A stretch of DNA of 64,000 nt from a virus (IMGVR_UViG_2595698513_000001:30745-94744); one strand, 5' to 3'. Shown: positions 2-54,804, counted from the stretch's first letter. Notes: generated from the sequence alone by a model not told the origin. Translations and numbers: made by a program.

Positions 2-1180
2 GCTTGGGCAGGTTATCTTCCAATGGATCACGGTGACTTCTATGAGGTTGTTACCTATCTGAAGAACTATCCAGATGACCTTAACCTAGGTTGGAATATC
101 TCGGATGAGTTCGTAAGAAAACTAGAAGCTGGTAATGAAGATGCAATCGATCGTCTAGCTAAGTCTCTGCACACTAAGCTGATTACAGGTAAAGGCTACT
201 ACTTCTTCCCTGATAAGGTTAATCGCCAGTCTCCACAAATGTATAAAGATCTAGGCCTAGATGTACGTGCAAGTAACTTGTGTACTGAAATCAACCTATT
301 CAGTGACCCAGACCATACATTTACATGTGTACTAAGTTCTATGAACCTAGCACGTTATGATGAGTGGAAAGATACTGATGCAGTATTCGTAGCTACAGTA
401 TTCTTGGATTGTGTTGCTCAGGAATTTATTGAACAAGCACGAGGTATTCCAGGACTAGAGAAAGCTATTCGTTTCACCGAAAAATCTCGCGCATTAGGTC
501 TAGGTGGTTTAGGTTTCCATACTTACCTACAAGATAATATGATTGCTTTCGAGACTTTCGAAGCTCATATGAAGAACCTAGAGATCTTTACTCATATGTC
601 CAATGAAGCACTACGTGCATCTAAGTGGATGGCTGAAGTTATGGGAGAACCAGAATGGTGTAAGGGCTATGGTGTTCGTAATACCCATAGATTAGCAGTT
701 GCTCCAAATACTTCTAGTGCTCTAGTATGTGGTGGTGTATCTCAGGGTATCGAACCACTACCAGGCAACAGCTATGTACAACCAAGTGCTGCTGGTGAGT
801 TAACTCGTCTTAACCCATCATTCTTGAAATTCTGTAAAGAGAAAGGTGTAGAAGTAGACCGTGAACTTATCAAATCTATTAACGATAAGCTAGGTTCTGT
901 ACAACATTTGGATTGGTTATCAGACCATGAGAAAATGGTATTCCGTACAGCATATGAAATTGACCAGAAAGCTATTATTCGTTTAGCAGCAGCTCGTCAA
1001 CCACGTATCTGTCAAGGTCAGTCTCTAAACTTATTCTTCGATGCTGACGAAGATGAAGAATACATCCTAGAAGTACACCAAGAAGCATTTACTAACGAAA
1101 ATATTAAACAACTATACTACATGCGCACTATGGCAGGTGTTCAAGCATCTAAAGGTGAATGTGTAGCTTGTGAGGGCTAA
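2..1180 (+). CDS. nrdA: ribonucleotide reductase large subunit, class I NrdA-like, C-terminal ~390 aa (5' end outside window)
   Basis: Frame open from window start; NLCTEI active-site-like motif; C-terminal CxxC tail; no glycyl-radical RVCGY motif. Confidence 0.7.
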   Translation, partial: AWAGYLPMDHGDFYEVVTYLKNYPDDLNLGWNISDEFVRKLEAGNEDAIDRLAKSLHTKLITGKGYYFFPDKVNRQSPQMYKDLGLDVRASNLCTEINLFSDPDHTFTCVLSSMNLARYDEWKDTDAVFVATVFLDCVAQEFIEQARGIPGLEKAIRFTEKSRALGLGGLGFHTYLQDNMIAFETFEAHMKNLEIFTHMSNEALRASKWMAEVMGEPEWCKGYGVRNTHRLAVAPNTSSALVCGGVSQGIEPLPGNSYVQPSAAGELTRLNPSFLKFCKEKGVEVDRELIKSINDKLGSVQHLDWLSDHEKMVFRTAYEIDQKAIIRLAAARQPRICQGQSLNLFFDADEDEEYILEVHQEAFTNENIKQLYYMRTMAGVQASKGECVACEG

Positions 1181-1181
1181 T

Positions 1182-1655
1182 ATGAATTACATGCAGTACT
1201 ACCCAACAGACGTAGTAAATGGAGAGGGGACGCGATGCGTCCTCTTCGTGTCTGGGTGCTCACACGGTTGTAATGGCTGCTATAATGAAGCAGCCTGGAA
1301 TCCTAATAGCGGGCATGAATTTACTCAAGAACTAGAAGACCAAATTATTAAAGATTTGCAGGATACTCGTATCAAACGTAGAGGATTAACTCTATCCGGA
1401 GGAGATCCACTTCATAAACGGAATTTTGCATCGGTTTTACGCTTGTGTAAGCGAGTTAGAAAGGAATGTCCAACTAAGGATATTTGGCTTTATACCGGTT
1501 ACACACTAGAGCAAGTAAAACAGGGTCGGTTTTGTGCTATACTAGACTACATTGATGTTCTAGTAGATGGTAAGTTTGAGAAAGACTTGTATGATGCAGG
1601 TCTTAAATTCCGTGGAAGTAGCAACCAAAATATCATTTACTTAGGAGCGGCGTAA
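1182..1655 (+). CDS. nrdG: anaerobic ribonucleotide reductase activating protein (radical SAM)
   Basis: MNYMQYYP...VSGCSHGCNGCYN CxxxCxxC motif; near-collinear with E. coli NrdG as recalled. Confidence 0.85.
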   Translation: MNYMQYYPTDVVNGEGTRCVLFVSGCSHGCNGCYNEAAWNPNSGHEFTQELEDQIIKDLQDTRIKRRGLTLSGGDPLHKRNFASVLRLCKRVRKECPTKDIWLYTGYTLEQVKQGRFCAILDYIDVLVDGKFEKDLYDAGLKFRGSSNQNIIYLGAA

Positions 1656-1682
1656 GCCCTCCTTTTTTATTCGAAAATTCAT

Positions 1683-1711
1683 TTGCTTTTGTGAGCGAAT
1701 TTCCGTATAAT
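1683..1711 (+). promoter_or_regulatory. early sigma70 promoter TTGCTT-17-TATAAT
   Basis: Spacing read directly; leader ...AAATTGAAAACGGAGATTAAATATG. Confidence 0.65.
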
Positions 1712-1741
1712 TATCTCATAAATTGAAAACGGAGATTAAAT

Positions 1742-2140
1742 ATGTTTTTAGACTACGAATTTTGCGAAAATAACCAAATTCTTATTGAGAAAATGTACCA
1801 TATGGGTTCTCTATTTACTGGACGTATGGATAGCGAAGTAGACGACCTAAATCGCGATTTAGATGGTTGCCAAAATCAAATTGTCATTACTGACAAAACC
1901 AAGCAATTGGCGGATATTCTAGATGAGTGTTACGAAGATAATATGGCTAATGACGATATTCTATCCCGCCTATACTCAGCAGGTTTTAATCGTGGATGTG
2001 TATTTGAGCTATCTATCACAAACCCTAGCGGTATTGGTCGTTACCTCCTATATGTATACGTAGAATCTGAGCTAGAACTAAGAGCATACGCAGAAGACTT
2101 AGCTAACCGTGTTTGGGAGAAGAGCAATGAAAGTAATTGA
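1742..2140 (+). CDS. hypothetical early protein
   Basis: ATG after early promoter 1683-1711 and conserved leader with GGAG. Confidence 0.6.
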   Translation: MFLDYEFCENNQILIEKMYHMGSLFTGRMDSEVDDLNRDLDGCQNQIVITDKTKQLADILDECYEDNMANDDILSRLYSAGFNRGCVFELSITNPSGIGRYLLYVYVESELELRAYAEDLANRVWEKSNESN

Positions 2141-2570
2141 TAGCTTTAGAGGGGAACATGCGTTCCTCTCTAATATGTTTCCAGTGGTGATTGAGCATGA
2201 CGGCATTACTTATCCTTCTAGTGAAAACTTGTATCAAGCGTTCAAAACGCCGGAAAGACGAGAGCGAAAGTTAATTGCCAAACTTCCACCAAACCAGTCT
2301 AAGAACTACTGGAAGTTTAATGCAATCAAGACACCAAACTTCCATAAAGATAAGCTAAAGTATATGGAAATAGCTCTTCGTGCTAAATTCGAAGACCCAT
2401 ACCTAGCTGCCGCTTTAATAATGGGCACAAAAGATGCCGAACTTATTGAAGGTAACTGGTGGGGCGACGGTTTTTGGGGTGTTAGTGATAAAACTGGTCA
2501 CGGACACAACCACTTAGGCAAACTATTAATGAAGATTCGAGAGGAACTTAATGGACGCACTGAAGGATAA
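2127..2570 (+). CDS. NADAR (YbiA-like) domain protein, candidate ADP-ribose-removing enzyme
   Basis: FRGEHAFLSNMFP...ENLYQAFK and WGDGFWG motifs typical of NADAR/DUF1768; RBS GGGAGAAG. Confidence 0.65.
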   Translation: MKVIDSFRGEHAFLSNMFPVVIEHDGITYPSSENLYQAFKTPERRERKLIAKLPPNQSKNYWKFNAIKTPNFHKDKLKYMEIALRAKFEDPYLAAALIMGTKDAELIEGNWWGDGFWGVSDKTGHGHNHLGKLLMKIREELNGRTEG

Positions 2571-2778
2571 ATTAATAGAGAATCCAAAGCTTCAATGTGG
2601 TGTAGGTCTAGCATCTGCTACATCAGAAGAAATAGAAGAAATGTGTGATTGGCTAGCAGTGCGTGGTATTCCTTATGTGCACCAAACCACACATCTAAAA
2701 ACAGGTAAGCCGTTACCGAAAAATGGCTTACTTATTATCAATATTATTGGAGTAAAGAATGCTAAAAATTTACACTGA
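2551..2778 (+). CDS. hypothetical protein
   Basis: ATG overlapping upstream gene end; coding-like composition. Confidence 0.45.
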   Translation: MDALKDKLIENPKLQCGVGLASATSEEIEEMCDWLAVRGIPYVHQTTHLKTGKPLPKNGLLIINIIGVKNAKNLH

Positions 2779-3217
2779 TGGAGCATGTCGTGGCAACCCT
2801 GGGGTAGGTGCTTGGGCTTTCGCTGTTTTTGAAGGCTGGGCTAAGAAAGGTACTAAAAGTGCTGCTATGCCACACACTACAAACAATGAGGCTGAACTTA
2901 CAGCCATTGTTAAAGCGTTAGAATGGGCGATTCGTGCCAACCTAACCGAAGTAGAAATCCTAACCGACTCTAACTATGCTTGCCAAGGTTATAAGACATG
3001 GATGCATGGTTGGGTTAAGAAAGGCTGGGTAACAGCAGGTGGAACTCCAGTTAAGAATCTAGAACTTTGGAAGACATTATATAATATTTCTCAAAAAATT
3101 GATGTCACCATGACAAAAGTTAAAGGTCACTCTGGTGATGAAGGTAACGAGTTGGCAGATACCTTGTGTAACTGTGCAATAGACGAGTGGGAACTCGAAA
3201 ATGTGGTGATGAAATGA
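2759..3217 (+). CDS. rnhA: ribonuclease H
   Basis: IYTDGACRGNPGVGAWAF, TNNEAEL, LTDSNY, VKGHSGDEGNELAD RNase H motifs. Confidence 0.85.
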   Translation: MLKIYTDGACRGNPGVGAWAFAVFEGWAKKGTKSAAMPHTTNNEAELTAIVKALEWAIRANLTEVEILTDSNYACQGYKTWMHGWVKKGWVTAGGTPVKNLELWKTLYNISQKIDVTMTKVKGHSGDEGNELADTLCNCAIDEWELENVVMK

Positions 3218-3414
3218 GTAATTTTACTTGGAATATTAACTTCCTAATATTCTGGCGTTTGGCATGGCTGAGAAAGTTGCCAGAAGGCTATACAGTAACT
3301 ATGGATGGTTGGGGGCATATAGGTCGTCTATACTTCACCACTCAAACTGACCCAGTAGGCTTTTACATCAAGCCTCTAGGCAAGAAAATTAAAAACCTAA
3401 TTGCTAAAGACTAA
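3214..3414 (+). CDS. hypothetical small protein
   Basis: ATGA overlap with rnhA stop. Confidence 0.4.
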   Translation: MSNFTWNINFLIFWRLAWLRKLPEGYTVTMDGWGHIGRLYFTTQTDPVGFYIKPLGKKIKNLIAKD

Positions 3415-3429
3415 AAAACAACGTATAAT
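3401..3429 (+). promoter_or_regulatory. T5-type early promoter TTGCTA-17-TATAAT plus conserved leader
   Basis: Leader AGTTCCATAAAGTTGAGAAACGGAGATTAAAAATG. Confidence 0.7.
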
Positions 3430-3461
3430 AGTTCCATAAAGTTGAGAAACGGAGATTAAAA

Positions 3462-3695
3462 ATGATTTTACCAGAAGATATTCAACCAAAAACCCATTGC
3501 ACTGTATACACCGCGAATGTCCGTTACACTGTATACACAGCTAAAGTCCCTTTCGGTGAGTTCCAGAAGGGCGACCCTGTGTTTGTGTACAAAACAATCG
3601 AAGGTCTAGGTGACTTAAAGGTACATAAAGGTATACCTATTGATAGTGATAAAGTTCACTACTTCTTTGACCATGAACTAGTTTTGGAGCAATAA
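3462..3695 (+). CDS. hypothetical early protein
   Basis: Directly after promoter 3401-3429 plus conserved leader. Confidence 0.6.
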   Translation: MILPEDIQPKTHCTVYTANVRYTVYTAKVPFGEFQKGDPVFVYKTIEGLGDLKVHKGIPIDSDKVHYFFDHELVLEQ

Positions 3696-3698
3696 AAT

Positions 3699-3890
3699 AT
3701 GCCGAAAGCAACCCTACGACAGGAAGTAACTGTCACATTAGAAATGACAGAGCATGAAGCTTACTGGCTTAGAGCCATGACTCAAAACTACCTAGGGCGT
3801 CCAGGAGATGAGCCCAAAGAAGATAAAGAGCTTCGTGAGAAGTTTTTTAATTCCTTAAAAAACTTACTAGATCAGCCTAAGATTCGTTAA
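3699..3890 (+). CDS. hypothetical small protein
   Basis: RBS GGAG then ATG. Confidence 0.5.
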   Translation: MPKATLRQEVTVTLEMTEHEAYWLRAMTQNYLGRPGDEPKEDKELREKFFNSLKNLLDQPKIR

Positions 3891-14917: not shown

Positions 14918-15541
14918 ATGAAAATGACAGTAACTAAAGCTCTTACTGAAATCAAAAAACTTGACAAACAAATCGCTAAGCTAGTTCAAAGCGGTCAGTT
15001 TATCCTAACAGCAACCCGTGGACATGTCCCAGGCTTCACAACTACTGAAGATGCTAGCAAAGCTGTTAAAGCTAACATGGATAAAGTACGCGCTCTTATG
15101 AAACGTCGTGCTCTTATCAAAGCTAAAGTTACTGCGTCTAACGCTGCAACTAAAGTTACAATCGGCGGAGTCGAAATGACTGTTGCAGAAGCAATTGAGC
15201 GTAAAGCCTCAATTGAGATGGACGAGACACTTCTTCAAGTCCTAAAACAACAGTTTAATCAAGTTACTAACAAACAAGTACGCCATGAGCAAATGGTTCA
15301 ATCTCAGATTGATTCTAAAGTCGAACAAGTATTCGGTAACGTGAAGAAAATCGACGCTAATGATGGTACTTACAAGGCTATCAAAGAACAGGTTGAACAA
15401 GCCAACAAGTTCGATATTGTTGACCCTAATAAACTTGCTGATGAAATCGAGAAGCTTGAAGAGTCTATCGACGACTTCAAAGCTAACGTTGACGTAGAGC
15501 TATCCGTAGCTAACGCGACTACTGAAATCGAAGTAGAATAA
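14918..15541 (+). CDS. coiled-coil early protein
   Basis: After promoter 14858-14886. Confidence 0.6.
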   Translation: MKMTVTKALTEIKKLDKQIAKLVQSGQFILTATRGHVPGFTTTEDASKAVKANMDKVRALMKRRALIKAKVTASNAATKVTIGGVEMTVAEAIERKASIEMDETLLQVLKQQFNQVTNKQVRHEQMVQSQIDSKVEQVFGNVKKIDANDGTYKAIKEQVEQANKFDIVDPNKLADEIEKLEESIDDFKANVDVELSVANATTEIEVE

Positions 15542-15908: not shown

Positions 15909-16175
15909 ATGACAAAAATTGTTAATATAAAGAACGAAGATTGTGACGTGTATATCGGTAGAGGCTCACCATTAGGTAATCCTTTTTCTCGTGCTACATT
16001 TGGGAGACTGAAAGCAATCGAATTGTACCATAAACATTACTTACCTGCTCTCAGAGAACAAGGAAAGATTACGGATGAATATCTAATATCTCTAAAAGGT
16101 AAGAGACTAGGATGCCATTGCAAGCCACAACCTTGTCATGGAGATAAGCTAGTAGAGATTATAAACAATGCCTAA
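15909..16175 (+). CDS. DUF4326-like small protein
   Basis: VYIGRGSPLGNPF...CHCKPQPCHGD pattern. Confidence 0.5.
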   Translation: MTKIVNIKNEDCDVYIGRGSPLGNPFSRATFGRLKAIELYHKHYLPALREQGKITDEYLISLKGKRLGCHCKPQPCHGDKLVEIINNA

Positions 16176-16539
16176 CACATACGTAATTATTGGTGTACTT
16201 TTAATGTTGCTAGCGGGCGCAGGGGGTTTTGGGTATTACCAAACGAAGCAGCTAGCTGCTACGGAAGTGAAGCTAGAAGCTGCGAATTTGAAAGTTAAAG
16301 AGAAAGAAGCTACCATTACACAGCTTCAAATCGAAAATGGAAAAATTATAGAAAAAGCTCAACGGTATCAAGCCGATGCTCAGCGTACTCAGCAAGAAAA
16401 AGATAAAATACAGCAACAAGCTGTTAAAGACCTTGATAGGGTCGAGAAGATAGCTAAAAGAAAATCTAAGTTATATGAAAAAATTATAAATAGAGATTAT
16501 AAAGAGACACAGCAGGAGCTAGAGGAGTTAACACAATGA
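16168..16539 (+). CDS. i-spanin (Rz-like)
   Basis: N-terminal TM followed by long coiled-coil. Confidence 0.6.
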   Translation: MPNTYVIIGVLLMLLAGAGGFGYYQTKQLAATEVKLEAANLKVKEKEATITQLQIENGKIIEKAQRYQADAQRTQQEKDKIQQQAVKDLDRVEKIAKRKSKLYEKIINRDYKETQQELEELTQ

Positions 16540-16829
16540 GACGCTTACTACTACCTATACTCTTGTTGTCAGGCTGCGTATCTGTTGAACCTAAACCTGA
16601 AAATATAGAACTTCAAAAATACATACCCAATAAACCAAGCCCTGTCCAAACTTATTCCGTTAATTGGAAAGTAGATAGCAATGGTAACGTTTATCTTTCT
16701 AGCACAGATGGTGTAAAAGTCAATGCGGAAAGAAAGGATATGATTAGATATATAAAAGATTTACAAAATATTGTTTGTTATTACGAAAACTCATACTCAT
16801 TCTGTAAGGAGAATATTAATGAAAAATAA
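16536..16829 (+). CDS. outer-membrane lipoprotein, putative o-spanin
   Basis: Lipobox LLLSGC; ATGA coupling to i-spanin. Confidence 0.45.
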   Translation: MRRLLLPILLLSGCVSVEPKPENIELQKYIPNKPSPVQTYSVNWKVDSNGNVYLSSTDGVKVNAERKDMIRYIKDLQNIVCYYENSYSFCKENINEK

Positions 16830-17466: not shown

Positions 17467-17478
17467 TAAGTAAGACTA

Positions 17479-17509
17479 AGCCCCTGTAGAAATACAGGGG
17501 CTTTTTTGT
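17479..17509 (+). terminator. rho-independent terminator
   Basis: AGCCCCTGTAGAAATACAGGGGCT then TTTTTT. Confidence 0.75.
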
Positions 17510-17552
17510 ATCTGAATGAAATAATCTTCATGTAACATTTATTAAACATTTC

Positions 17553-17581
17553 TTTACATTTTTGTAAAATTCTCCTATAAT
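17553..17581 (+). promoter_or_regulatory. sigma70-like promoter TTTACA-17-TATAAT for fibre/secreted-protein operon
   Basis: Lacks the conserved T5-type leader; follows terminator 17479-17509. Confidence 0.55.
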
Positions 17582-17623
17582 ATTAACAAATATTGAAAAC
17601 AGTTTATAAGGAGAAACAAATAA

Positions 17624-17959
17624 ATGGCATATCAAATTTTTTCAAGTGATAAAAAGGGTATAGGAGAGATTATCGAGTTACCTATTTCTCCAGAGTACGC
17701 TCACTGCTTCGCTGGTGTTCGTTACTTTGACTCGAACGACGCACAAATTATACCTAGTGCTGGCTCAGTGAACATCATGGCTAAACACCTCACAAATAAT
17801 AATTATGATGAAGTAGTTAATGCTGATCTAGACGCTACTGAAGCTGGAGCTGAGGCAGAATGGGGCGGAAACGTTACAGCAGTTAAAGTTACTCCATCAA
17901 GCCTTGCAGGAACAGACTTAGCTACTTATCAGCTAGTTGTAGTTCAAAACCTAAGTTAA
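17624..17959 (+). CDS. hypothetical protein, first gene of fibre operon
   Basis: After promoter 17553-17581. Confidence 0.55.
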   Translation: MAYQIFSSDKKGIGEIIELPISPEYAHCFAGVRYFDSNDAQIIPSAGSVNIMAKHLTNNNYDEVVNADLDATEAGAEAEWGGNVTAVKVTPSSLAGTDLATYQLVVVQNLS

Positions 17960-17969
17960 GGAGAAATAT

Positions 17970-20477
17970 ATGGGATTTGGCCCAGCCTATGGTACTGGTA
18001 GGGGCGGTGGTGCAGTTGACATTTTCACAAAGAAAGATGGAAACCCTGCCATATTCGCCAACACTGGTGCTAGAGACACATATTTTACATCAAACCCAGA
18101 TGAATTAGCGAAAGTTAAATCTTCTGGTGATGCAGTTGCTATTGGTACAGCTAACCAAATTACAGCAGCTTACGTATATAAACAAAACGCGTGGCAACCT
18201 ATTGCTACTAACTTCAAAGGAGATAAAGGTGCTCCAGGTACTCCTGGCGATGGTATTGATTACAGCCATCTTACTCAAGGACAAATTCCTAAATGGGACG
18301 CGACTGCTAAGAGATTTACTAATTCAGGTGTTACTTCGAAAGAAGATGGCTCGATTACCCTAGAGCCTGCATCATTACATCTAGGCTCACATTCTATTTC
18401 AAGTAGTGCAGAAAACGTAACATTCACTAACGTAGTTACAAATAAAGTGTACGCCCCTTTATGGCAAGAAGTAGGTTACGGTACTAAAACAGGGTACATT
18501 AGGTCACATGGACCAAGACTTGAGGTAGAGCTAGAAACAGATAACAGTAAAGATTTAGTTAACCCTTTCTTCAACTATACAGCACCTGCCGATGCTTCTT
18601 TATTTGGTGCTAAAATAGAAGTAGCTCAAGATGCTACCAACGTAGAAGTGCATGTACTCCTAAATAACGAAGAATTGTGGTTAGCTAGATTAGGGGATCT
18701 ATCTGCTGGAGAACAGGATATTTTCTTCACAAACCCAGCAGACTTTAAAGCTGGTAATACCTATGATGTTAGGGTGGCTAGCTCTGATGGGTCTGATGTT
18801 ATACTTAAAGGTAGTCAGTATGACACCCCAAAAGCTACGTTACATGTAGCTAAATGGACAGACGAGATAGTAGCTTCTCAAGAATGGTTAAAAACCCTAA
18901 AATTAGTAAATGACATTACATTAAGTGGTGATCAGTTCAGTTTTACAATGCTGGATGGTACTAGTAAGACTGTTACACTACCTGTTGGAGGTTCGGCTAA
19001 AGCGGCACCGTACAACTTTATAGAGTTGTTAACAGATAGGGGCATCTCAGTATCCGAACTGACTAACTCTACTCCTATTTTTAGTTTTGAAGAAGATACT
19101 TCTATTACTCTTACAATGCCTGCTACAAGTACTCTTCCGGTAGGTCGAGATAGTGCATTTATAGTAGAAAATAGGACTACTACACCCGCAGCAGTAGTAG
19201 AAGTAAAAGCAAGTAACACAGATATAGTTAATAGGCCTGGACTTACTTCTTTCAATGTGCCTACCAACCATACCATACTATTTGTAAGCAACGTAGCAAG
19301 CAACTCCTGGCATGCAATAGTGCTGGCCTCTGGTGGCACCGGTGGTTCTAGTTTGAACGAGGGGCAAGTAGTAAAAGCTCTAGAAACTACATCTAGTGGT
19401 AAAGACTTACTTGTACGCTACTACGACGATACCAGTTCTACCCTTACGTTCAACCCATGGGTAGACGATATTGCCAAACTAAATAAAGCTGTATCTGACT
19501 TAGAAAGACACCTAAAAAACAAAACTAAGTTTTATGTATATAAAGGTGATACTATACCTACCGATGTGCCTAGAGGCTCTCGCGGAGGGTACTACTTTAC
19601 TTTCTATGGTACAACTTCTGAGCTAACTCTCACAACCCCTGTAACAGCTAGTAAGATTAGTGATGGTACTATATTATTCATAGATAATAATTCACCTGAT
19701 TATTCTGTAACAGTAAACACACCGCAAGGAGAGACAATAGCAGGGCAGGCCTCTGTATCTATAGCTCCTGAAGCCGCCGCATGGTATGTTAGAAATGACA
19801 ATAACTGGCAGGAATTATACTCTGGATTTTTACCGCGCTCCCACAAAGATCTTATTAACGAGATGAAGGCGTTAGTGAGTGCTGATAATAACTTTATTCG
19901 TAACTTAAATGTACAGAGTGACGATCCTACCCAAACTGCTGTAGCTGCTACTTCATTGGAATTCAAAGGGTTTGACGTTACCACTCCTGCTGATGATACT
20001 ACAAAAGGTATTATTAAGTTCAAAGGGGCTACATTCGAGAACCCTGATGGTAGTAAAGTAGTTACAGATGTATTGAAACTTGTTGGTATGGAGGTTGTTG
20101 ATCCAGGCGATGGTACACCACCAAAACTAATGTTAACTGGTGGAGCGTTACCTTTACCACACCCAACTAGCGCATATGCATTCTTTGATGCAGCTGCTAC
20201 GGTACCAGATACAGTAGACTTCACTTCATTAACTAAGTTTACTAACGGTAAGGTTACAGTTACTAAATCTACTGCTGACCCTCAATATGTGTATATTCTT
20301 ATTCCTGCTGCTGAAGGGGCAGGGGCTGACCGTATTGGAGAGCAAGGTGGACTACCTGCATTCTGGGATAAAAGCTCTAAAACTTATACCGTCAATGGAC
20401 AGAGTGAAACATTCACAGTGTTCCGTTCTCCTTACCCACTAAAAGAGCAGGACGTTACACTAATAATTTACCATTAA
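17970..20477 (+). CDS. tail-fibre-like large fibrous protein (835 aa)
   Basis: Gly/Thr/Ser-rich; collagen-like GDKGAPGTPGDG; no signal peptide. Confidence 0.5.
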   Translation: MGFGPAYGTGRGGGAVDIFTKKDGNPAIFANTGARDTYFTSNPDELAKVKSSGDAVAIGTANQITAAYVYKQNAWQPIATNFKGDKGAPGTPGDGIDYSHLTQGQIPKWDATAKRFTNSGVTSKEDGSITLEPASLHLGSHSISSSAENVTFTNVVTNKVYAPLWQEVGYGTKTGYIRSHGPRLEVELETDNSKDLVNPFFNYTAPADASLFGAKIEVAQDATNVEVHVLLNNEELWLARLGDLSAGEQDIFFTNPADFKAGNTYDVRVASSDGSDVILKGSQYDTPKATLHVAKWTDEIVASQEWLKTLKLVNDITLSGDQFSFTMLDGTSKTVTLPVGGSAKAAPYNFIELLTDRGISVSELTNSTPIFSFEEDTSITLTMPATSTLPVGRDSAFIVENRTTTPAAVVEVKASNTDIVNRPGLTSFNVPTNHTILFVSNVASNSWHAIVLASGGTGGSSLNEGQVVKALETTSSGKDLLVRYYDDTSSTLTFNPWVDDIAKLNKAVSDLERHLKNKTKFYVYKGDTIPTDVPRGSRGGYYFTFYGTTSELTLTTPVTASKISDGTILFIDNNSPDYSVTVNTPQGETIAGQASVSIAPEAAAWYVRNDNNWQELYSGFLPRSHKDLINEMKALVSADNNFIRNLNVQSDDPTQTAVAATSLEFKGFDVTTPADDTTKGIIKFKGATFENPDGSKVVTDVLKLVGMEVVDPGDGTPPKLMLTGGALPLPHPTSAYAFFDAAATVPDTVDFTSLTKFTNGKVTVTKSTADPQYVYILIPAAEGAGADRIGEQGGLPAFWDKSSKTYTVNGQSETFTVFRSPYPLKEQDVTLIIYH

Positions 20478-20490
20478 GGAGTAAATATAT

Positions 20491-23076
20491 ATGACAACAA
20501 TAACTGTAGGTACTCCAGTTACCGCCCCGATTACTCCGGGGCGTGATGACTCTAATGTGTGGCCTACCCATATTGCAAAATACGGTAAAGGCGGTTTTGA
20601 AGTAGTAGACGCTATCCAAGACCGCGACTTAATTACCGACGAAAGACGAGAAGATAAAGCAGTACTAGTAAGGTCTGCTGCAAACGGTAAACCAGCACTA
20701 TTCGAATATTCTAATGGTAACTGGAATGAAATCCCATTAGAAGGTGGTTCTAGTAACGGCATGACCTTTAAGGACGACCTCTTTACCACCGATAATGTTG
20801 ATACTGCTACATTCGAGAGCTCTTCCGTAAAAGAGATTAATGATGCAGGTACTAGCGTGTCCGTTACGCCATTCACTACCTATACTGATGAGCGTACTAG
20901 CGGAACTACTGACGAAGGCGGACAAACCTACGTTCCAGTACGAGCTAATAAAGTATCCCTAATGTCCCCATTACAAATGTTCTCAGACCCTAATGAGGAA
21001 TTAGGTGTAGTAATGGAAATTCAGCATGACGCATTCGAAGCTAAACGTGCTGACGGATATTTAGCATATATTGGCTACCCTATTGAGATTATCGCACAAC
21101 CAGAAGCAGAGAATTACCATGCTAAGGGTAAGATATGGCCTACCGACTTAGTGGTAGATAGTCAAGGTACTTCCATTGCTATCAATAAAGCACAGAAAAC
21201 CGTGGGTATCCAAGAAGGTGATAACCTAGACCCTAACGTTACAGGCGGGGCTGACTTCCTAGTAGCATATCGCATATCTCTAGCAGGTGTTGCGCCAAAC
21301 GAAGGTAGAGTTCGCATCTATCTAGCTCAAGGACAGCAGTTCGATGAGTCTTCTGATATTGTAGTAGATGTCGACGGTCAAGCACTAGCAGCAGAAAAAC
21401 ACTATAAAGCAGGCGATACTCTAGGGGACTTGGAAGTAGTTGGAGTACTAAATGCCAAAGGCTTAACAAACCTAACAATGCACGTAGTACATACATTTAC
21501 TACTGATAATATCATGATTAATGAGAGGGCTAAAGGAATCTCAGGTATTATGGTTCAGGCTCTTGACGAAAACAGTAAGACAGGTCAAGCACTAGTACAG
21601 TACGAGTTAGATACTAGACAAGTTATTGAGTTCTCTAGAGAATGGCTTGGTCAGAAGAGAATGAGCTTTGACAGTGTAGTAAATCATGACTCTAAAAGAC
21701 AAACCGGAGCAGCCGGACAGGGTATATCTCTAGCAGATGGGTTGCATTTTTATAACCCACACCCTGCGGCAACTGAAGTAAAAGATGGGCAATTAATCAT
21801 TAGTGATGATGGCTCTAATATCTGTGACTTTAGCTTAGGTAAGTTCTTCAGTACAGCGGAAACAGTAGCTCTGCGTGGCAAACAAGTAGACGTTACACTA
21901 GAGGTTAATAATAGCACTAACGGCTGGAACTTGTATCTATTAAAATGGACAGGAGCTCCAGACAAGTACACCAAAGAACTCTATAAAACTAGAGATGGCG
22001 GTGGTATGCCTATTTGGGAAGATGGTTGGGGTGTAAGTGACGTTAAGTTTATTTCAGAAGATATTACATCAGGAACACACGCAGTAACCAAGACGTTTAC
22101 AGTACCACAAGATGCTAATAACTACGCTGTAATAGTTGCGCCAGTTGAAGCCGAAATCCCAATGACTCTTAAGGTATCCAAGTTCGAATTAGATGTAGTA
22201 AATCCATTCTATATGTATGAGATGTACCAATCAAATAAGTTAGACGAAGTACACTTGAGAGCCAGCGAAGAGTTCCTAGAAACTATCCAAGATAACCAAG
22301 GACTTGGTGGGCTTAGATATACTATCAATACTGCTGCGGATGGGCTGCCAATGCCTTGTGGTAAAATCCATAAAGGTAGAGCAGACATTACTCTAGATAG
22401 TACAGTAAATACTGTTGCTGGTTCTGGGGCTAGTGGTGGTGAGGGTGCTCTTAAGTTCATGGCAGAAGGTACGGCTACTATTAATACAGAACTACGTATC
22501 TGGTCTGAACAAGCTAAGGGTACTAACTCTGTAGTAACTTTCTGGTGGGTTATTATTGCAGCCAATGGAACAGAGTCTAAGATACTTAAATCGGAAACTT
22601 CCTTTAATATTCCTGGTGGTTCTCAAGCAGTTTACACCATGAAGCCTTTCGACCTGCTAGTAGCTCCTGGTGATAGAATTGCTCTTAAAGCATCTGCTGA
22701 CAAAGCTGACGGTGCCTTCATTGAGTCTGTGTCCCCAAGCAAACCAATGGTAGATGTTAAAATCAACTTCAAGGAGTTACTGGCTACAACAGCAGATGAC
22801 CCGCTATCTGGACTGGATTTAAGTGGCTTCGATGATGTGTTACAAGCGCCAATAATTTTAACTAAGACTGTTGTTAACAGAAGCTCTATAGATATTCCTT
22901 TCGAAGTACCAGATGGGGCGGACTTAGTAGTACTTGGTGCAGTAAAAGAAGCAGTTTCAGGGATTATTGAGCCTGTAGACGACTTACATTACTCTTACAA
23001 TACTATTACAAATATATTAACTGTTTCCTTTGGCGAAGTAGCCACGGTACAGCTAACTTTAGGTCTTTACATGTAA
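20491..23076 (+). CDS. tail-fibre-like large fibrous protein (861 aa)
   Basis: Beta-rich T/S/G/N composition typical of fibres or receptor-binding proteins. Confidence 0.5.
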   Translation: MTTITVGTPVTAPITPGRDDSNVWPTHIAKYGKGGFEVVDAIQDRDLITDERREDKAVLVRSAANGKPALFEYSNGNWNEIPLEGGSSNGMTFKDDLFTTDNVDTATFESSSVKEINDAGTSVSVTPFTTYTDERTSGTTDEGGQTYVPVRANKVSLMSPLQMFSDPNEELGVVMEIQHDAFEAKRADGYLAYIGYPIEIIAQPEAENYHAKGKIWPTDLVVDSQGTSIAINKAQKTVGIQEGDNLDPNVTGGADFLVAYRISLAGVAPNEGRVRIYLAQGQQFDESSDIVVDVDGQALAAEKHYKAGDTLGDLEVVGVLNAKGLTNLTMHVVHTFTTDNIMINERAKGISGIMVQALDENSKTGQALVQYELDTRQVIEFSREWLGQKRMSFDSVVNHDSKRQTGAAGQGISLADGLHFYNPHPAATEVKDGQLIISDDGSNICDFSLGKFFSTAETVALRGKQVDVTLEVNNSTNGWNLYLLKWTGAPDKYTKELYKTRDGGGMPIWEDGWGVSDVKFISEDITSGTHAVTKTFTVPQDANNYAVIVAPVEAEIPMTLKVSKFELDVVNPFYMYEMYQSNKLDEVHLRASEEFLETIQDNQGLGGLRYTINTAADGLPMPCGKIHKGRADITLDSTVNTVAGSGASGGEGALKFMAEGTATINTELRIWSEQAKGTNSVVTFWWVIIAANGTESKILKSETSFNIPGGSQAVYTMKPFDLLVAPGDRIALKASADKADGAFIESVSPSKPMVDVKINFKELLATTADDPLSGLDLSGFDDVLQAPIILTKTVVNRSSIDIPFEVPDGADLVVLGAVKEAVSGIIEPVDDLHYSYNTITNILTVSFGEVATVQLTLGLYM

Positions 23077-23105
23077 AAACGAGGGGCGAGAGCCCCTAAA
23101 CATAG

Positions 23106-23585
23106 GTGAATACTATGAATAAAATTAAATTAACAACACTAGCAATCCTAGCTTCTCTAGGAATGTCAGGTGCTGCATTAGCTGACAACGCTAACGCTAA
23201 CTTCTCAACAACAGTACAAAGCTTCTGTACAGTAGGTCAAACAGCTCCTGGTATTATGCACTTGGATGGTGTTAACCTTACTACAGATACTCCTGCTGAG
23301 ATGGTTGTTAACAACAACGATGCTAACAAGTATCAAGTGAGTATTTCAAAGCCTTCTGACTTTACTACTCGTCCTAACTCATACACAGGTAGTACTACAT
23401 TTACATCTGCATTTGGTGTAACAGGAGCTAACTCTACAGTTAACCCAGTACCTAACGATACTGCACATAACCTAGCAAATATCGGTACAGATAACCTAAG
23501 TATTTCTCTGTTTGGTACATCTGATGTAAATTACACAGCCGGTGACTATACCGCAGTTGTAGTAGCATCATGCGTCGCTCAGTAA
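23106..23585 (+). CDS. secreted SCPU-domain / fimbrial-subunit-like protein
   Basis: Signal peptide ending AALA; ANFSTTVQSFCTVGQ N-terminus; ...GDYTAVVVASCVAQ tail; two Cys. Confidence 0.5.
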   Translation: MNTMNKIKLTTLAILASLGMSGAALADNANANFSTTVQSFCTVGQTAPGIMHLDGVNLTTDTPAEMVVNNNDANKYQVSISKPSDFTTRPNSYTGSTTFTSAFGVTGANSTVNPVPNDTAHNLANIGTDNLSISLFGTSDVNYTAGDYTAVVVASCVAQ

Positions 23586-23977
23586 TACTACTAGGGCTCT
23601 TAATATCAGGGTGGGCTAACGCGCTCACCCTAGCTCCAATGTACTTTGATGAGTTAGTATATCAAGATATGTATATAGCTAAATTCAGGTTAGATAATAC
23701 TGATGTGGATTTACGCTATTTTGATGTAACTGTACATGAAGACTCACTAGACGGTAACGTAGTGTATAGTAACACTGAAGTACTAGGTGGGGAGAGCTAC
23801 AAGTCTTTAAGAGCACCTATTTATAACCTGAAACCTGATAAATTACAGAAGTTTTACGTTTGTGTAACCGAAAAACCTAAGGAGGGTCAGAAATGGGGAG
23901 TTGTTGGAAGAGCTTGTGCAAAAGTGCGATTATATTGGCCACAATCACAGCTACAACAGTTAACGCAGCAGGATTAA
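23570..23977 (+). CDS. secreted protein
   Basis: Signal peptide ending WANA; overlap-coupled to upstream gene. Confidence 0.45.
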   Translation: MRRSVILLGLLISGWANALTLAPMYFDELVYQDMYIAKFRLDNTDVDLRYFDVTVHEDSLDGNVVYSNTEVLGGESYKSLRAPIYNLKPDKLQKFYVCVTEKPKEGQKWGVVGRACAKVRLYWPQSQLQQLTQQD

Positions 23978-24270
23978 TACCTAGCCCAGAACTACCATAT
24001 GGTAATGACTCTATCAGGACTCCAGATGGTTTTCAATGCTCTAGCGCTATAGCACCATCAGCATATCTAGACGGCGGTGTATACCAAGAAGACGATAACA
24101 GTAAGTATGGAGATCCTGATAGAGGGGTCTATGTACGAATAATGGTACCATTATATAGTGGTACGAAACGGCTTGATTGTAGTCAGCTATACAAACAAGC
24201 ACTAAGGGAGCGACAACGTGAACAAGCTCTCAGCGATATTAAAGACAGCGTTTTTAAGTCTGATGATTAG
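23893..24270 (+). CDS. secreted protein
   Basis: RBS AAGGAGGG then ATG; N-terminal signal peptide. Confidence 0.5.
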   Translation: MGSCWKSLCKSAIILATITATTVNAAGLIPSPELPYGNDSIRTPDGFQCSSAIAPSAYLDGGVYQEDDNSKYGDPDRGVYVRIMVPLYSGTKRLDCSQLYKQALRERQREQALSDIKDSVFKSDD

Positions 24271-24421
24271 TGGCTGTACTTTTAACTTTACAATAGACAC
24301 CGATTACGCTGCACAAAGAGACCACGGTGGACCAATTGAAGAAGAAGTCACAACTAATAACAAAACTGAGACAGATCCTAACGTCGACGCGAATGTAGAA
24401 GTACCAGGAGGAGTCTTATGA
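24218..24421 (+). CDS. small lipoprotein (Llp-like candidate)
   Basis: GTG start with RBS AGGGAG; lipobox LMISGC. Confidence 0.45.
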   Translation: MNKLSAILKTAFLSLMISGCTFNFTIDTDYAAQRDHGGPIEEEVTTNNKTETDPNVDANVEVPGGVL

Positions 24422-24627
24422 GGCTATCTCCGGACGTTGAGAGAATACTAGAAGCCATTAATGTAATAAAAGGTGGGGCTAGTATTGTACCAGAGGATAT
24501 TGACTCGGCAGTTAGTCATGTATTATCTACACTACCTAAGAAAGCACGGATGGAATGCTTGGGTATGAGACCTGAGCAGAAGCGAGCATTTCTATTAGGA
24601 TATGCAGCATGCATGCAGTTTCATTAA
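24418..24627 (+). CDS. hypothetical protein
   Basis: ATGA overlap; terminator follows at 24716-24744. Confidence 0.45.
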   Translation: MRLSPDVERILEAINVIKGGASIVPEDIDSAVSHVLSTLPKKARMECLGMRPEQKRAFLLGYAACMQFH

Positions 24628-24715
24628 TACTAGTAGCAACTCTAAGTAGTTATTTACTAGATTGGAGTATACCAAAATCATTAGCAGTATTAATGATTAC
24701 ACTATTAATTATATA

Positions 24716-24744
24716 GCCGAGGTCAAAAGCCTCGGCTTTTTATT
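24716..24744 (+). terminator. rho-independent terminator ending the fibre/secreted-protein operon
   Basis: AGCCGAGGTCAAAAGCCTCGGCT then TTTTAT. Confidence 0.75.
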
Positions 24745-24800
24745 TGTTACAAGTCTATAACACTTCTCCCCACATACTCTTAACATCTCTACGAATTGTC

Positions 24801-24829
24801 TTGAAATTGAGACATGTATGTTATATAAT
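24801..24829 (+). promoter_or_regulatory. promoter TTGAAA-17-TATAAT for holin-endolysin
   Basis: Spacing read directly. Confidence 0.55.
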
Positions 24830-47846: not shown

Positions 47847-48310
47847 TACAGTATATAACCAGTATTATTAGACTTTGCTAATGTGAATAAGTCTGTTGAT
47901 AAAAAGTTGGCATGAAACCTGCTAGTGTATGCAAAAGTCGTGCCATGTCAAAAATCGTGCCAACTTTTCGAAATTTTCCTATTTGCTGCGAAAAGAATGT
48001 TTTAATACTAGGGCATAGCTAAGGGCTAAAATCGCTTAGAATCGCATACAGAGCGTTTTAGCGATACTGTATAAATATACAGTTAGTTGACTTTACTTGA
48101 AAAGTATGCTACACGCGCGCCCGTTCCTTATATTTGTGGGCAAAATTCGCTGATAGCCAAAACCTATCAATCTAGTGATTTTTAAAGATTTAAACGATTA
48201 GACTAATTTTCAAGATTCGCTATTATATACCCATACCAACGAGACAGGGCAGCAACAAAAACCCTAGCGAGTTGAGTATAGAAAGACTGAAAAGTTTTTC
48301 AAAAAAGTAG

Positions 48311-48339
48311 TTGACAAGCCAAACGGCTTTTGAGATACT
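48311..48339 (+). promoter_or_regulatory. candidate pre-early promoter TTGACA-17-GATACT
   Basis: A-tract upstream; ~165 nt before the 48504 CDS. Confidence 0.5.
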
Positions 48340-48413
48340 ACTAACGTTCTCAAGGGAACACGCTCTTTAAAAATTTGGAATATGCGATTTGACCTATTGC
48401 TTACTTGATTGGA

Positions 48414-48470
48414 TTGTTTGAGTGTTAACCGTTAACCGATTCATTGCGAGTCGGTTAACTGAGAAACACT
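48414..48470 (+). promoter_or_regulatory. nested inverted repeat in 5' UTR of first pre-early gene
   Basis: GAGTGTTAACCG...AACCGATTCATTGCGAGTCGGTT...AACACTC. Confidence 0.5.
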
Positions 48471-48503
48471 CTCATTTAACTAACCTATTAAGAGGAAAAT
48501 ATC

Positions 48504-48974
48504 ATGGCTAAGAAATGGACAGAAGAATCAGCAGCAAAAGCAGCAGAACTTTACAATGCTAAACTAGAAGCAGACGGTAAAGAAGCAGCAGCACACAACG
48601 ATTTTCTAGACACAATTGCAGCGCACGCAGAAGTGCAAGCCGTGTCAGGTAAAGCGGTTCGCTCAAAACTGACAGTTATGGGTATCTACCAAAAACCGGA
48701 CGCAGTTGCAAGTGTTGCGAAAACTAACACAGTGCGTAAAGAACACTATGTTCGTGCTCTAGCTCACAGCTTGAAAGTTGACGCAGAAGAACTAGACAGC
48801 CTCAAAAACGCTAAAATGTCAGCCCTAGCAGCTATCACAGAAGCTATTGGTATCACTGATATTATGGCAGCAAGCGCAAAAGATTATACGCCTAATGAGT
48901 TGATTCTCATTAAAGGTTTTGCGTTAGCGAATGGTATAGACCTAGCCGATATTGTAGACGACTTGGAAGACTAA
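48504..48974 (+). CDS. pre-early-region protein (Ala-rich, acidic)
   Basis: RBS AAGAGGAAAA; follows promoter 48311-48339 and 5'-UTR hairpin. Confidence 0.6.
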   Translation: MAKKWTEESAAKAAELYNAKLEADGKEAAAHNDFLDTIAAHAEVQAVSGKAVRSKLTVMGIYQKPDAVASVAKTNTVRKEHYVRALAHSLKVDAEELDSLKNAKMSALAAITEAIGITDIMAASAKDYTPNELILIKGFALANGIDLADIVDDLED

Positions 48975-48982
48975 CCCTAAAC

Positions 48983-49047
48983 AATTAAAGGGGAAATTTC
49001 CCCTTTAATTTACAGTGTAAATTGATGGACAGTTTACACTGTAAATT
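48983..49047 (+). promoter_or_regulatory. 28-bp perfect palindrome plus double-palindrome operator-like element (copy 1)
   Basis: AATTAAAGGGGAAATTTCCCCTTTAATT then AATTTACAGTGTAAA-11-TTTACACTGTAAATT. Confidence 0.6.
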
Positions 49048-49070
49048 AACCCATAATTGGAGATAAAACC

Positions 49071-49442
49071 ATGTCAAATCAAACTCAAATCATTGCGCTA
49101 GGTTCACTATTAGAAGCAGGTAATGCAAAAAGTGAGCTACAGCAAAAAGTGTCTAAACTGATTAACGTTCGTTTCGGTTGGCGAGTCAATGACCGTATTT
49201 CTAGCAAAACATTGCAAACCGTAATTGATTTAATAGAAAATCACGGCGGTAAAAAGCTATTCAACCCTAGCGAGCTAGATTCATTAGTTTATGCTAATAA
49301 AGCGGCAAAACTAACCGTGTTCAGCCTACTATGTGAAGCGTTAAAAATCACTGAGCTAACAGAGCGTAAAAATATTATGTCTATTGTTACTAGTGGCGGT
49401 GAACGTGAATTTCCGGTTCAAGTTCTAAAGGCATTCAGTTAA
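49071..49442 (+). CDS. A2-sized (123 aa) pre-early protein
   Basis: Size and position upstream of the A1-like gene, as in T5 FST DNA. Confidence 0.4.
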   Translation: MSNQTQIIALGSLLEAGNAKSELQQKVSKLINVRFGWRVNDRISSKTLQTVIDLIENHGGKKLFNPSELDSLVYANKAAKLTVFSLLCEALKITELTERKNIMSIVTSGGEREFPVQVLKAFS

Positions 49443-49450
49443 TAACGGGT

Positions 49451-49515
49451 TTACGCCCTTAAACTAGGGCGTAAATTTACAGTGTAAATTGATGGACAGT
49501 TTACACTGTAAATTT
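49451..49515 (+). promoter_or_regulatory. hairpin plus double-palindrome operator-like element (copy 2)
   Basis: TTTACGCCCTTAAACTAGGGCGTAAA then the identical 38-bp AATTTACAGTGTAAATTGATGGACAGTTTACACTGTAAATT. Confidence 0.6.
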
Positions 49516-49543
49516 CAACCAACCCCATAGCGGAGTATAAACA

Positions 49544-51199: not shown

Positions 51200-51279
51200 T
51201 CCTTAGCCTAACGGCTCGACGGGCGCAAATGTGACGCCCGTCACACTTTACAACTTACCCATATTTGGAGATTTTATTC

Positions 51280-51918
51280 ATGAAAAAAGCATATGTATTC
51301 GACCTTGACGGCACAACAATTGATTCATTCCACCGTGTTGAGCCTTGCCTAGATTCACAAGGCAACTTAAACCTTGACAAATACATTAAAGAGGCTTGCA
51401 CACCTGAGAAAGTCGCAGATGATACGCTCTTACCACTTGCCGGATATATGCAACAACTAATTGAGCAAGGTGAATTAGTAATCATTCTCACAGCACGATT
51501 CATGCTTAACCATGATTATGTTTATTTACGCAAAAATAAACTACGTGCGCCAATCATTTGCAGCCGTGACCAGTTGCCTCGTGTATTTGGTGAAGGCAAT
51601 GCAGCCCGTATCAGTGCAATGTCAGACGCGCCATATAAACATGAATGGTTTAATCACTTGTTTGCTAGTATGCCTCAAGTTACTGAGTGGTGTTTCTTTG
51701 ACGACCACGACGGTATATTAGAAATGGCTAATCAATTAAAAGGTGTTACAGCTACCGACGCCAAATTGATGAATGAGCTGTTACAGATGCAATGGGCTGA
51801 CATTTACCGCCAAGGTGAACAGGACACCGCCGAGCTAATACAAGACCTAATAGATGAATGTTCAACTCAAGACGTGATTTGCAAACCGGAATGGATTGAT
51901 GAGCTTTTAGCTCAATAA
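51280..51918 (+). CDS. dmp: HAD-family phosphatase, candidate 5'-deoxyribonucleotidase
   Basis: VFDLDGTT HAD motif I; position next to the A1-like gene. Confidence 0.5.
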   Translation: MKKAYVFDLDGTTIDSFHRVEPCLDSQGNLNLDKYIKEACTPEKVADDTLLPLAGYMQQLIEQGELVIILTARFMLNHDYVYLRKNKLRAPIICSRDQLPRVFGEGNAARISAMSDAPYKHEWFNHLFASMPQVTEWCFFDDHDGILEMANQLKGVTATDAKLMNELLQMQWADIYRQGEQDTAELIQDLIDECSTQDVICKPEWIDELLAQ

Positions 51919-52065
51919 TCAAAGAAAAGCTGTACAAATAAGAATGGCTCTCAATTGAGAGCCATTATCATATAGGGGGCGGTAATGAGACTAGTTCTCA
52001 TTTGGCTATGGCGGTACACCCCCTATCTTGTACAACTTTGTGAAAATTGAAGATTCGAAAGGGTG

Positions 52066-52734: not shown

Positions 52735-52745
52735 ATAAACCTCAC

Positions 52746-54683: not shown

Positions 54684-54706
54684 GAATATTCCTCCTTTTA
54701 TGTACT

Positions 54707-54735
54707 ATTATATCTGGGTTTGAGTGCTTTGTCAA
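54707..54735 (-). promoter_or_regulatory. consensus sigma70 promoter for pb5-like gene (TTGACA-17-TATAAT on minus strand)
   Basis: Reverse complement reads TTGACAAAGCACTCAAACCCAGATATAAT; RBS AAGGAGG follows. Confidence 0.6.
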
Positions 54736-54755
54736 ATTTGATTTTTAAATTTTTG

Positions 54756-54784
54756 TTGACATTTGTGATTGTTAATGTTATATT
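54756..54784 (+). promoter_or_regulatory. sigma70-like promoter TTGACA-17-TATATT upstream of terS
   Basis: Divergent from the pb5 promoter. Confidence 0.5.
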
Positions 54785-54804
54785 AGTTGGAAAAGGAGAG
54801 GAGT

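Follow-up and report, generated by a model that had tools for sequence, protein, structure and literature searches.

Here we describe the operon at positions 17,553 to 24,744 of a 64,000-nucleotide (nt) stretch of viral DNA (IMGVR_UViG_2595698513_000001:30745-94744), referred to below as the window. We consider that this operon probably consists of two modules, a lateral tail-fibre set (gp074-gp076) and a mobile cassette acting in the cell envelope (gp077-gp081). Positions 17500-24800 of the window are 100% identical to positions 48244-55544 of Vibrio phage pVp-1 (NC_019529.1; Demerecviridae, Ermolyevavirinae, Vipunavirus), and a window position is the NC_019529.1 position minus 30744. The operon corresponds to gp074-gp081 of this record, in which RefSeq labels every product "hypothetical protein" except gp074 ("tail protein"). 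A preliminary description of the window had read the operon as a single surface-remodelling or auxiliary adhesin system; this reading was not supported, the operon being two modules. The genes are as follows (aa, amino acids).

17624-17959, + strand: gp074, 111 aa, DUF7265 protein, putative fibre-to-collar adaptor
17970-20477, + strand: gp075, 835 aa, candidate proximal fibre protein
20491-23076, + strand: gp076, 861 aa, candidate distal fibre protein, presumed receptor-binding part
23115-23585, + strand: gp077, 156 aa from ATG 23115 (159 aa from GTG 23106), exported, pilin-like immunoglobulin (Ig) fold
23570-23977, + strand: gp078, 135 aa, exported, one Ig-like domain similar to the N-domain of PapD-type chaperones
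23893-24270, + strand: gp079, 125 aa, exported, most conserved member of the cassette
24218-24421, + strand: gp080, 67 aa, lipoprotein with lipobox ISGC
24418-24627, + strand: gp081, 69 aa, no signal peptide, last gene of the operon

Searches of all eight proteins against Pfam, NCBIfam, PADLOC and PHROGs returned only DUF7265 and function-less PHROGs, and no match to a defence system. Sequence searches of the PDB, whether with individual proteins or with family profiles of gp077, gp078 and gp079, gave nothing useful. Likewise, we found no description of these genes in the literature on pVp-1, VPT02 and Vipunavirus proteomics, on the structural proteomes of SIO-2 and ValSw3-3, or on vibriophage exclusion lipoproteins.

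Gp074-gp076 as candidate lateral tail fibres

The first protein of the operon, gp074, matched Pfam PF23927 (DUF7265) with an E value of 2e-46, as well as phrog_16185 and the C-terminus of phrog_15373, and was 42% identical to residues ~176-260 of gp157, which is encoded in the late region of the genome.

Record 106947-107729 (locus L002, 31948-32730), outside the window: gp157, collar domain fused to DUF7265

Residues 42-144 of gp157 matched T5 p132 (7qg9_R, E 5e-5) and DT57C LtfC (8hqz_Q, E 4e-8). However, both of these proteins have 140 aa and lack DUF7265, whereas residues 158-260 of gp157 make up an extra, C-terminal DUF7265 domain, of which gp074 is a free-standing paralogue. In the late region, gp157 directly follows the pb3-like gp155 and the pb4-like gp156, and no open reading frame (ORF) of at least 100 aa lies downstream of it. 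The LtfC collar of DT57C is a ring of 12 subunits, which holds the LtfA fibres at their N-termini by strand addition (PMC10713586), and LtfB hangs on LtfA (PMC10713586, PMC4728585).

Three segments of gp075 are relevant to its proposed place in such a fibre.

17970-17999, + strand: putative gp075 docking peptide MGFGPAYGTG, first 10 residues
18219-18254, + strand: collagen-like (G-X-Y)4 run GDKGAPGTPGDG, gp075 residues 84-95
20232-20474, + strand: C-terminal junction domain of gp075, ~aa 755-835

Only the motif MGFGPAYG(T/S)G, with 9/10 positions identical, is common to gp075 and a 566-aa protein of the V. cholerae phage phi 3, and it looks like a putative docking peptide on a conserved tail. 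Compared with its counterpart in phage Thalassa, gp075 is 88-98% identical over the first 100 aa and 24-50% identical in the middle, and its C-terminal 80 aa recur at the end of the protein upstream of every gp076-like gene, including that of phage 1.179.O. The collagen-like stretch that had been reported for the large proteins is indeed there, in the 835-aa one, and a (G-X-Y)4 run occupies the same position in Thalassa and in the 83-kb phage K376, with other X and Y residues in K376. Overall, the domains of gp075 are shared in a mosaic manner across 128 phage records.

Homologues of gp076 occur in 267 phage records, comprising both siphoviruses and podoviruses, and one of them closes the tail module of the temperate phage 1.179.O. 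The pVp-1 protein is 78% identical to a protein of the unrelated 79-kb phage D93, compared with 31-45% within its own subfamily, and its C-terminal tip could not be aligned with that of Thalassa. In one 1496-aa profile, phrog_10818, gp075-like and gp076-like parts are fused, and neither of the two large proteins has a signal peptide. A conserved N-terminus, a variable tip and mosaic spread are what one typically sees in a modular receptor-binding fibre that is exchanged horizontally. Thus, we infer from sequence that gp074-gp076 are the lateral tail-fibre set of the phage, the counterpart of T5 pb1 or of DT57C LtfA/LtfB. No other side-fibre gene was found in the pVp-1 genome. The suggestion that the 835- and 861-aa proteins are fibre proteins far from the tail genes therefore stands; the further idea of a displaced second fibre set is right as to "displaced" but not as to "second", because these are the only lateral-fibre candidates and no ORF follows the collar gene.

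The proposed set resembles the lateral fibres of T5 and DT57C in that the tail block of pVp-1 encodes a collar protein homologous to p132 and LtfC, in that the fibre is made of several parts, the N-terminal attachment being conserved and the distal part exchangeable, and in that the fibre is separate from gp137, the pb5-like candidate for receptor binding. It differs in where the genes lie: those of the T5-type coliphages follow ltfC at the end of the tail block, whereas those of pVp-1 sit in the dnk-holin slot of the early region, ~52 kb from gp157. It also differs in that a free DUF7265 protein heads the fibre operon while the collar bears an extra DUF7265, and in that gp075 has no detectable sequence similarity to T5 pb1 or DT57C LtfA, the vibriophage fibres having another 10-residue N-terminal motif. 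We propose that gp074 and the conserved N-terminal peptide of gp075 would dock the fibre on the DUF7265-bearing collar, that gp075 would form the proximal shaft, its conserved C-terminal domain holding gp076, and that gp076 would be the exchangeable distal receptor-binding part. This docking geometry, like the incorporation of gp074-gp076 into virions, is presumed from the sequences. Two results weigh against the assignment: a phmmer search with gp075 of the complete set of PDB chains, those of LtfA in 8hqz among them, yielded no match at E<=1, and proteomic or cryo-electron microscopy evidence for gp074-gp076 in virions was not found in the Ermolyevavirinae literature.

Two genes elsewhere in the window match PHROGs with a receptor-binding or fibre label. 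One, gp137 (645 aa; 52746-54683, - strand), weakly matches phrog_4815 ("receptor binding tail protein", pb5-like). It is oriented divergently to the terminase genes, with the HNH endonuclease gene gp136 (52066-52734, - strand) after it, and no Llp-like lipoprotein gene is annotated beside it. The other, gp069 (207 aa; 14918-15541, + strand), matches phrog_1491 ("tail fiber protein", E 4e-68) and lies behind a promoter at 14858 of the early class described below, far from any tail gene.

Conservation of the genomic slot

Upstream of the operon lie the genes for i-spanin, o-spanin and deoxynucleoside monophosphate (dNMP) kinase, and downstream of it those for holin and endolysin. T5 has the order spanin, spanin, dnk, T5.042, terminator, promoter, holin, endolysin and no fibre gene at this place, and therefore the operon occupies a defined slot. 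The slot (dNMP kinase/fibres/holin) is filled in all T5-like vibriophages; a full-length gp074 homologue sits in it in 52 T5-like vibriophage records, giving two DUF7265 copies per genome. Thalassa has the same eight genes in the slot, and phi 3 has only the DUF7265 gene and the 566-aa protein, which is otherwise unrelated. Because slot and promoter are conserved in three genera, the arrangement is subfamily-wide and not a recent acquisition by pVp-1. The view that the operon is a separately acquired cassette was consequently dropped: both slot and promoter are conserved in Thalassavirus, in Cetovirus and even in phi 3.

Spread and mobility of the gp077-gp081 cassette

Homologues of gp077 were found in 179 phage records, whose genomes fall into four or more unrelated types (T5-like, 83 kb, 79 kb and ~60 kb), and no fewer than four unrelated types of Vibrio phage carry the cassette downstream of fibre genes. 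D93, K376 and D53 (phages of 79, 83 and 60 kb, respectively) contain the entire gp075-gp081 block, and in all three the cassette follows the fibre genes, away from the lysis genes. A scan of IMG/VR with gp079 returned only known T5-like phages.

A search of 1.84 billion proteins with a gp077 profile (E<=1e-3) yielded 69 cluster representatives, nearly all of 144-185 aa (one has 122 aa) and aligned over nearly their full length. In bacterial chromosomes, a translationally coupled triad of gp077-, gp078- and gp079-like genes lies among housekeeping genes, the neighbours being confirmed by local profile searches. An Alphaproteobacteria metagenome-assembled genome (MAG) contig of 231-513 kb provides one example; in this triad, the third protein has a 120-residue Pro/Lys/Gln-rich C-terminal extension. 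The triads listed here are all annotated as hypothetical.

L017, 10001-11645: bacterial gp077/gp078/gp079-like triad
L020, 5386-6689: bacterial gp077/gp078/gp079-like triad
L014, 1252-2593: bacterial gp077/gp078/gp079-like triad

The cassette is also carried by a Tn3-family transposon of ~6 kb in V. qingdaonensis (NZ_JAKRRY010000071.1; L011, 15-6000), which has tnpA at 105-3107 (- strand), tnpR at 3266-3841 and, at its ends, inverted repeats of 61 nt with 97% complementarity. Its only cargo, located between tnpR and the right end, consists of genes like gp081, gp077, gp078 and gp079, with 36-55% identity. The gp081 homologue comes first in this copy, and the gp080 lipoprotein gene is absent both from it and from the bacterial triads. 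Because the cassette is kept here without any fibre gene, a role in fibre assembly is ruled out and an envelope function that benefits the carrier is likely. A role of the small proteins as fibre chaperones was rejected for the same carriage, on the transposon and on bacterial chromosomes, and for their export signals. On a metagenomic podovirus-like phage contig (L019, 3899-8945), a distant gp077/gp078-like pair lies downstream of a fibre-like gene for a 1023-aa protein with a Pfam Collagen match; the contig also encodes a Peptidase_S74 fibre.

Folds and export signals of the cassette proteins

The preliminary description had assigned export signals to four small proteins, and these are conserved across phages: the signal peptides of gp077, gp078 and gp079 and the lipobox of gp080 are kept in four other phages despite differing sequence. 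It had also likened the first of them to the spore-coat-U (SCPU)/Csu-type pilins. The AlphaFold2 model of gp077 has a predicted local distance difference test score of ~90 over residues 38-159, the signal peptide and residues 27-37 being unmodelled, and ~43 of its top 50 Foldseek matches in the PDB were subunits of chaperone-usher pili (CfaB, Caf1, FimA/F/G/I, PapA/H, CS17 and CsuA/B), with a best E value of 1e-3 and template modelling scores of 0.45-0.54. These scores are marginal and therefore indicate resemblance, not proven homology. A Gly 14 residues from the C-terminus is present in 39/69 members of the gp077 family and in 14/14 E. coli pilins. However, CsuA/B ranked only 41st by fold, and PF05229 (SCPU) gave no match at E<=10 in 16 close gp077 homologues or at E<=0.1 in the 69 representatives. 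Thus, the chaperone-usher pilin-like fold was borne out and membership in the SCPU/Csu family, at the level of sequence, was not. An hhalign match of the gp077 family to the E. coli pilins fell from 87% to 0.5% probability after the signal peptides were trimmed and was discarded because the signal peptides had driven the alignment.

The model of gp078 is an Ig-like sandwich of one domain, which among named functional classes is closest in fold to FimC, SafB and CsuC. With signal peptides removed, hhalign aligned the gp078 family to six E. coli chaperones over 81 columns of the N-domain with a probability of 33% (P 4.5e-4), compared with <=0.3% in reversed and cross controls. No Pfam match to SCPU, Fimbrial or PapD_N was obtained for 69 members of the gp077 family and 13 of the gp078 family, and neither family had a PDB sequence match.

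Among the remaining proteins, gp079 is 66-91% identical across phage types and has two conserved Cys; its signal peptide is conserved as a feature and variable in sequence, its C-terminal region reads as an amphipathic helix, and its homologue is the third gene of the bacterial triads. It matched no family and no PDB entry. In gp080, the lipobox is kept in five phages and the mature N-terminus CTFNFTIDTDYA is conserved; phrog_16916 matches residues 5-67, and a PDB sequence search gave five marginal, unrelated matches (best E 0.53, LpqN), with no Llp chain among them. Finally, gp081, presumably a cytoplasmic protein, matches phrog_27736 and is conserved in D93, K376 and D53.

Taken together, the cassette resembles chaperone-usher pili in the Ig fold, signal peptide, Gly at -14 and alternating hydrophobic last strand of gp077, and in the likeness of gp078 to a chaperone N-domain, which is evident in fold and weak in profile. 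Unlike the class 5 (CfaB/CS17), Caf1, type 1 (Fim) and archaic (Csu) systems, it has no usher gene: neither a PF00577 match nor an exported protein of usher size was seen beside it in ~10 contexts among phages, the transposon and bacterial chromosomes. In addition, chaperones of those systems have two domains whereas gp078 lacks the second and has no clear equivalent of Arg8. The two invariant Cys of gp077, C41 and C156, join the first and last strands, a pattern unlike that of chaperone-usher pilins, and gp079 has no counterpart in such systems.

Possible functions of the cassette

Cor of T1, phi80 and N15 is an exclusion protein encoded beside receptor-binding genes. In T5, Llp is an exclusion lipoprotein that blocks the receptor, and its gene lies beside the receptor-binding gene (PMC9586334). 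We propose that the gp077-gp081 cassette would likewise act in the cell envelope, not in the virion, and that it would change or mask the cell surface during infection so that superinfecting phages are excluded and progeny are spared adsorption to debris. Surface masking or superinfection exclusion is our best guess for three reasons: the cassette sits where phages commonly carry such genes, as in the cases of T5 Llp and Cor; it travels between phages together with host-recognition genes; and it is kept as transposon cargo. Like Llp and Cor, it consists of small exported proteins or lipoproteins whose genes are immediate neighbours of host-recognition genes and move with them between phages. 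Nevertheless, the parallel has limits. Llp and Cor are single genes whereas the cassette has five, and the proteins are unrelated; Llp and gp080 have only the lipobox in common, and the PDB search with gp080 returned no Llp chain. Further, llp lies beside a pb5-type gene whereas the cassette adjoins lateral fibre genes, the pb5-like gp137 being elsewhere.

Several observations weigh against this proposal. Unlike Llp and Cor, the small proteins do not co-vary with the tip of the adjacent fibre, gp076: D93 has 78% identity in gp076 and only 47-66% in the small proteins, and Thalassa has 31% in gp076 and 70-91% in the small proteins. These figures speak against a cognate pairing for receptor masking. 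Also unlike Llp and Cor, the cassette has homologous triads in bacterial chromosomes, which suggests a housekeeping role in the envelope, not necessarily connected with phages. Being co-transcribed with fibre genes needed late would be odd timing for exclusion, and the exclusion role is something that we only infer. A more novel and tentative alternative is that gp077-gp079, as a pilin-like subunit, a one-domain chaperone-like protein and a third conserved exported protein, might constitute a previously undescribed envelope system without an usher. It would exist as a chromosomal operon in marine bacteria that Vibrio phages have picked up more than once, in each case behind fibre genes, and that a Tn3-family transposon has acquired too. 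In cells carrying the phage or the transposon, its products would assemble by donor-strand complementation into a periplasmic or surface structure blocking phage adsorption or DNA entry; we regard this alternative as possible but doubtful.

It is in our judgement unlikely that a true polymer, either a fibre of the donor-strand type or a capsule-like one, is built from the small exported proteins. In such a polymer gp077 would be the subunit and gp078 a one-domain chaperone, with gp079 and gp080 standing in for the usher or with export by a host route, and the infected or carrier cell would become coated with a new surface structure. The pilin-like Foldseek profile of gp077, which includes the capsule-forming Caf1, its Gly 14 residues from the C-terminus, and the closeness of gp078 to FimC, SafB and CsuC with a specific hhalign signal all speak for such a polymer. 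So do the conserved N-terminal segments of gp077 (27-40) and gp078 (19-31), unmodelled in the monomer predictions as donor strands would be, and the gp077/gp078/gp079 triad, which is always translationally coupled. Yet an usher was seen in 0 of the ~10 contexts examined, Pfam and the PDB gave no sequence match, the alignment of gp077 with pilins vanished without the signal peptides, and in gp078 neither the second domain of a chaperone nor a clear Arg8 equivalent is present.

The other two rivals to surface masking fare worse. That the whole operon is an early host-surface remodelling or auxiliary adhesin system, with the large proteins not being virion parts, as first proposed, appears very unlikely. 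Its position among early genes on the early strand, its strong sigma70-type promoter and the coupling of the large proteins to exported ones favour this reading, but the large proteins lack signal peptides, are tied to the collar through DUF7265, carry the conserved docking peptide and are the only lateral-fibre candidates in the genome. Moreover, other phages have gp076 homologues in their tail modules and no small genes alongside, the small genes in turn are found where the large ones are absent, the neighbours are late-acting lysis genes and the promoter is unlike the early class. We give scarcely any credence to the small proteins being accessory factors for lysis or envelope disruption. 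Although the cassette has the spanin genes on one side and those for holin and endolysin on the other, and a lipoprotein with periplasmic proteins recalls the logic of spanins, complete i-spanin and o-spanin genes are already present at 16168-16829, the cassette is separated from the lysis genes in D93, K376 and D53, where it follows fibre genes, and a lysis factor would be harmful on a transposon or a bacterial chromosome, where the cassette is nevertheless kept.

Gene calls and transcription signals

All the ORFs named in the preliminary description (111, 835, 861, 159, 135, 125 and 67 aa) are present on the + strand. The seven genes that it listed are correct, but it left out the eighth, gp081, and the 159-aa length of the gp077 ORF needed correction, since every homologue starts at ATG 23115 (156 aa). 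In RefSeq, gp079 (111 aa) and gp080 (52 aa, starting inside the lipobox) appear to be too short, as the starts chosen there cut off the conserved signal peptide and lipobox. There are unusually long out-of-frame overlaps of 85 nt between gp078 and gp079 (23893-23977) and of 53 nt between gp079 and gp080 (24218-24270), and overlaps of varying length are found at both junctions in Thalassa, D93, K376 and D53 as well. The transcription signals of the operon are as follows.

17478-17509, + strand: upstream intrinsic terminator, 11-bp stem with 6 GC pairs, then a T-run; closes the spanin/spanin/dNMP-kinase unit
17530-17549, + strand: element ATGTAACAT-N5-AAACAT, directly upstream of the -35 hexamer
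17553-17581, + strand: operon promoter TTTACA-17-TATAAT, 11/12 consensus positions
23082-23097, + strand: GC-rich hairpin AGGGGC-GAGA-GCCCCT, between fibre genes and cassette
24715-24744, + strand: downstream intrinsic terminator, 9-bp stem with 6 GC pairs, then a T-run; closes the operon

Terminators on both sides of the operon, as previously proposed, were located in the sequence as hairpins with T-runs at 17478-17503 and 24715-24737; the upstream hairpin is kept in Thalassa and phi 3, and the downstream one in Thalassa. The promoter and the element ATGTAACAT-N5-AAACAT are conserved in Thalassa and phi 3 with a differing spacer. The element has no second occurrence within the window, so the idea of a shared regulatory motif was rejected; it may be the binding site of a regulator that sets the timing of fibre expression. 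The hairpin at 23082-23097 is not a full terminator because it has no T-run. Thalassa and D93 have comparable hairpins at this junction, and the one in pVp-1 might tune the ratio of the two modules.

The operon had further been said to lack the leader shared by some 25 early promoters. It does lack this leader and is a distinct transcription unit with its own type of promoter, and the early class itself is real, with the qualification that it numbers ~15 copies on the + strand (at <=2 mismatches, compared with ~2 expected by chance) and not ~25. Promoters of this class have the form TTGCTA-17-TATAAT followed by the leader AGTTcCATAAAGTTGAgaaacGGAGA (also given as AGTTcCATAAAGTTGA), which runs into the ribosome-binding site; the copy at 9346 precedes a tRNA and not a protein gene.

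3401, 3899, 4234, 7010, 9346, 13259, 13720 and 14858, + strand: early-class promoters
26469, 31185, 34344, 35275, 38120, 38972 and others, + strand: early-class promoters, continued

The holin promoter at 24801, which follows the operon terminator, likewise falls outside the early class, and the genes flanking the operon are late-acting lysis genes. Nothing in the sequence demonstrates early expression of the operon, and the late-region promoters (54756, 56620 and 62254) are equally near the sigma70 consensus.

Significance

The proposed fibre set is a variant of known lateral fibres, and the cassette is an uncharacterised family. The analysis assigns the side-fibre genes of the T5-like vibriophages, whose annotation is "hypothetical" in every record examined, and points to a possible docking route for the fibre through a collar with an added DUF7265 domain. 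This is of direct use for engineering the host range of phages meant for aquaculture and food safety, among them pVp-1 and VPT02. The analysis also defines a compact, mobile five-gene cassette without a family assignment in ~180 Vibrio phage genomes and a transposon, the three-gene core of which is found in bacterial chromosomes. If the cassette does mediate exclusion or surface coating by means of chaperone-usher-like folds without an usher, it would represent a new mechanism in the surface warfare between phages and their hosts and a new branch of donor-strand assembly systems.

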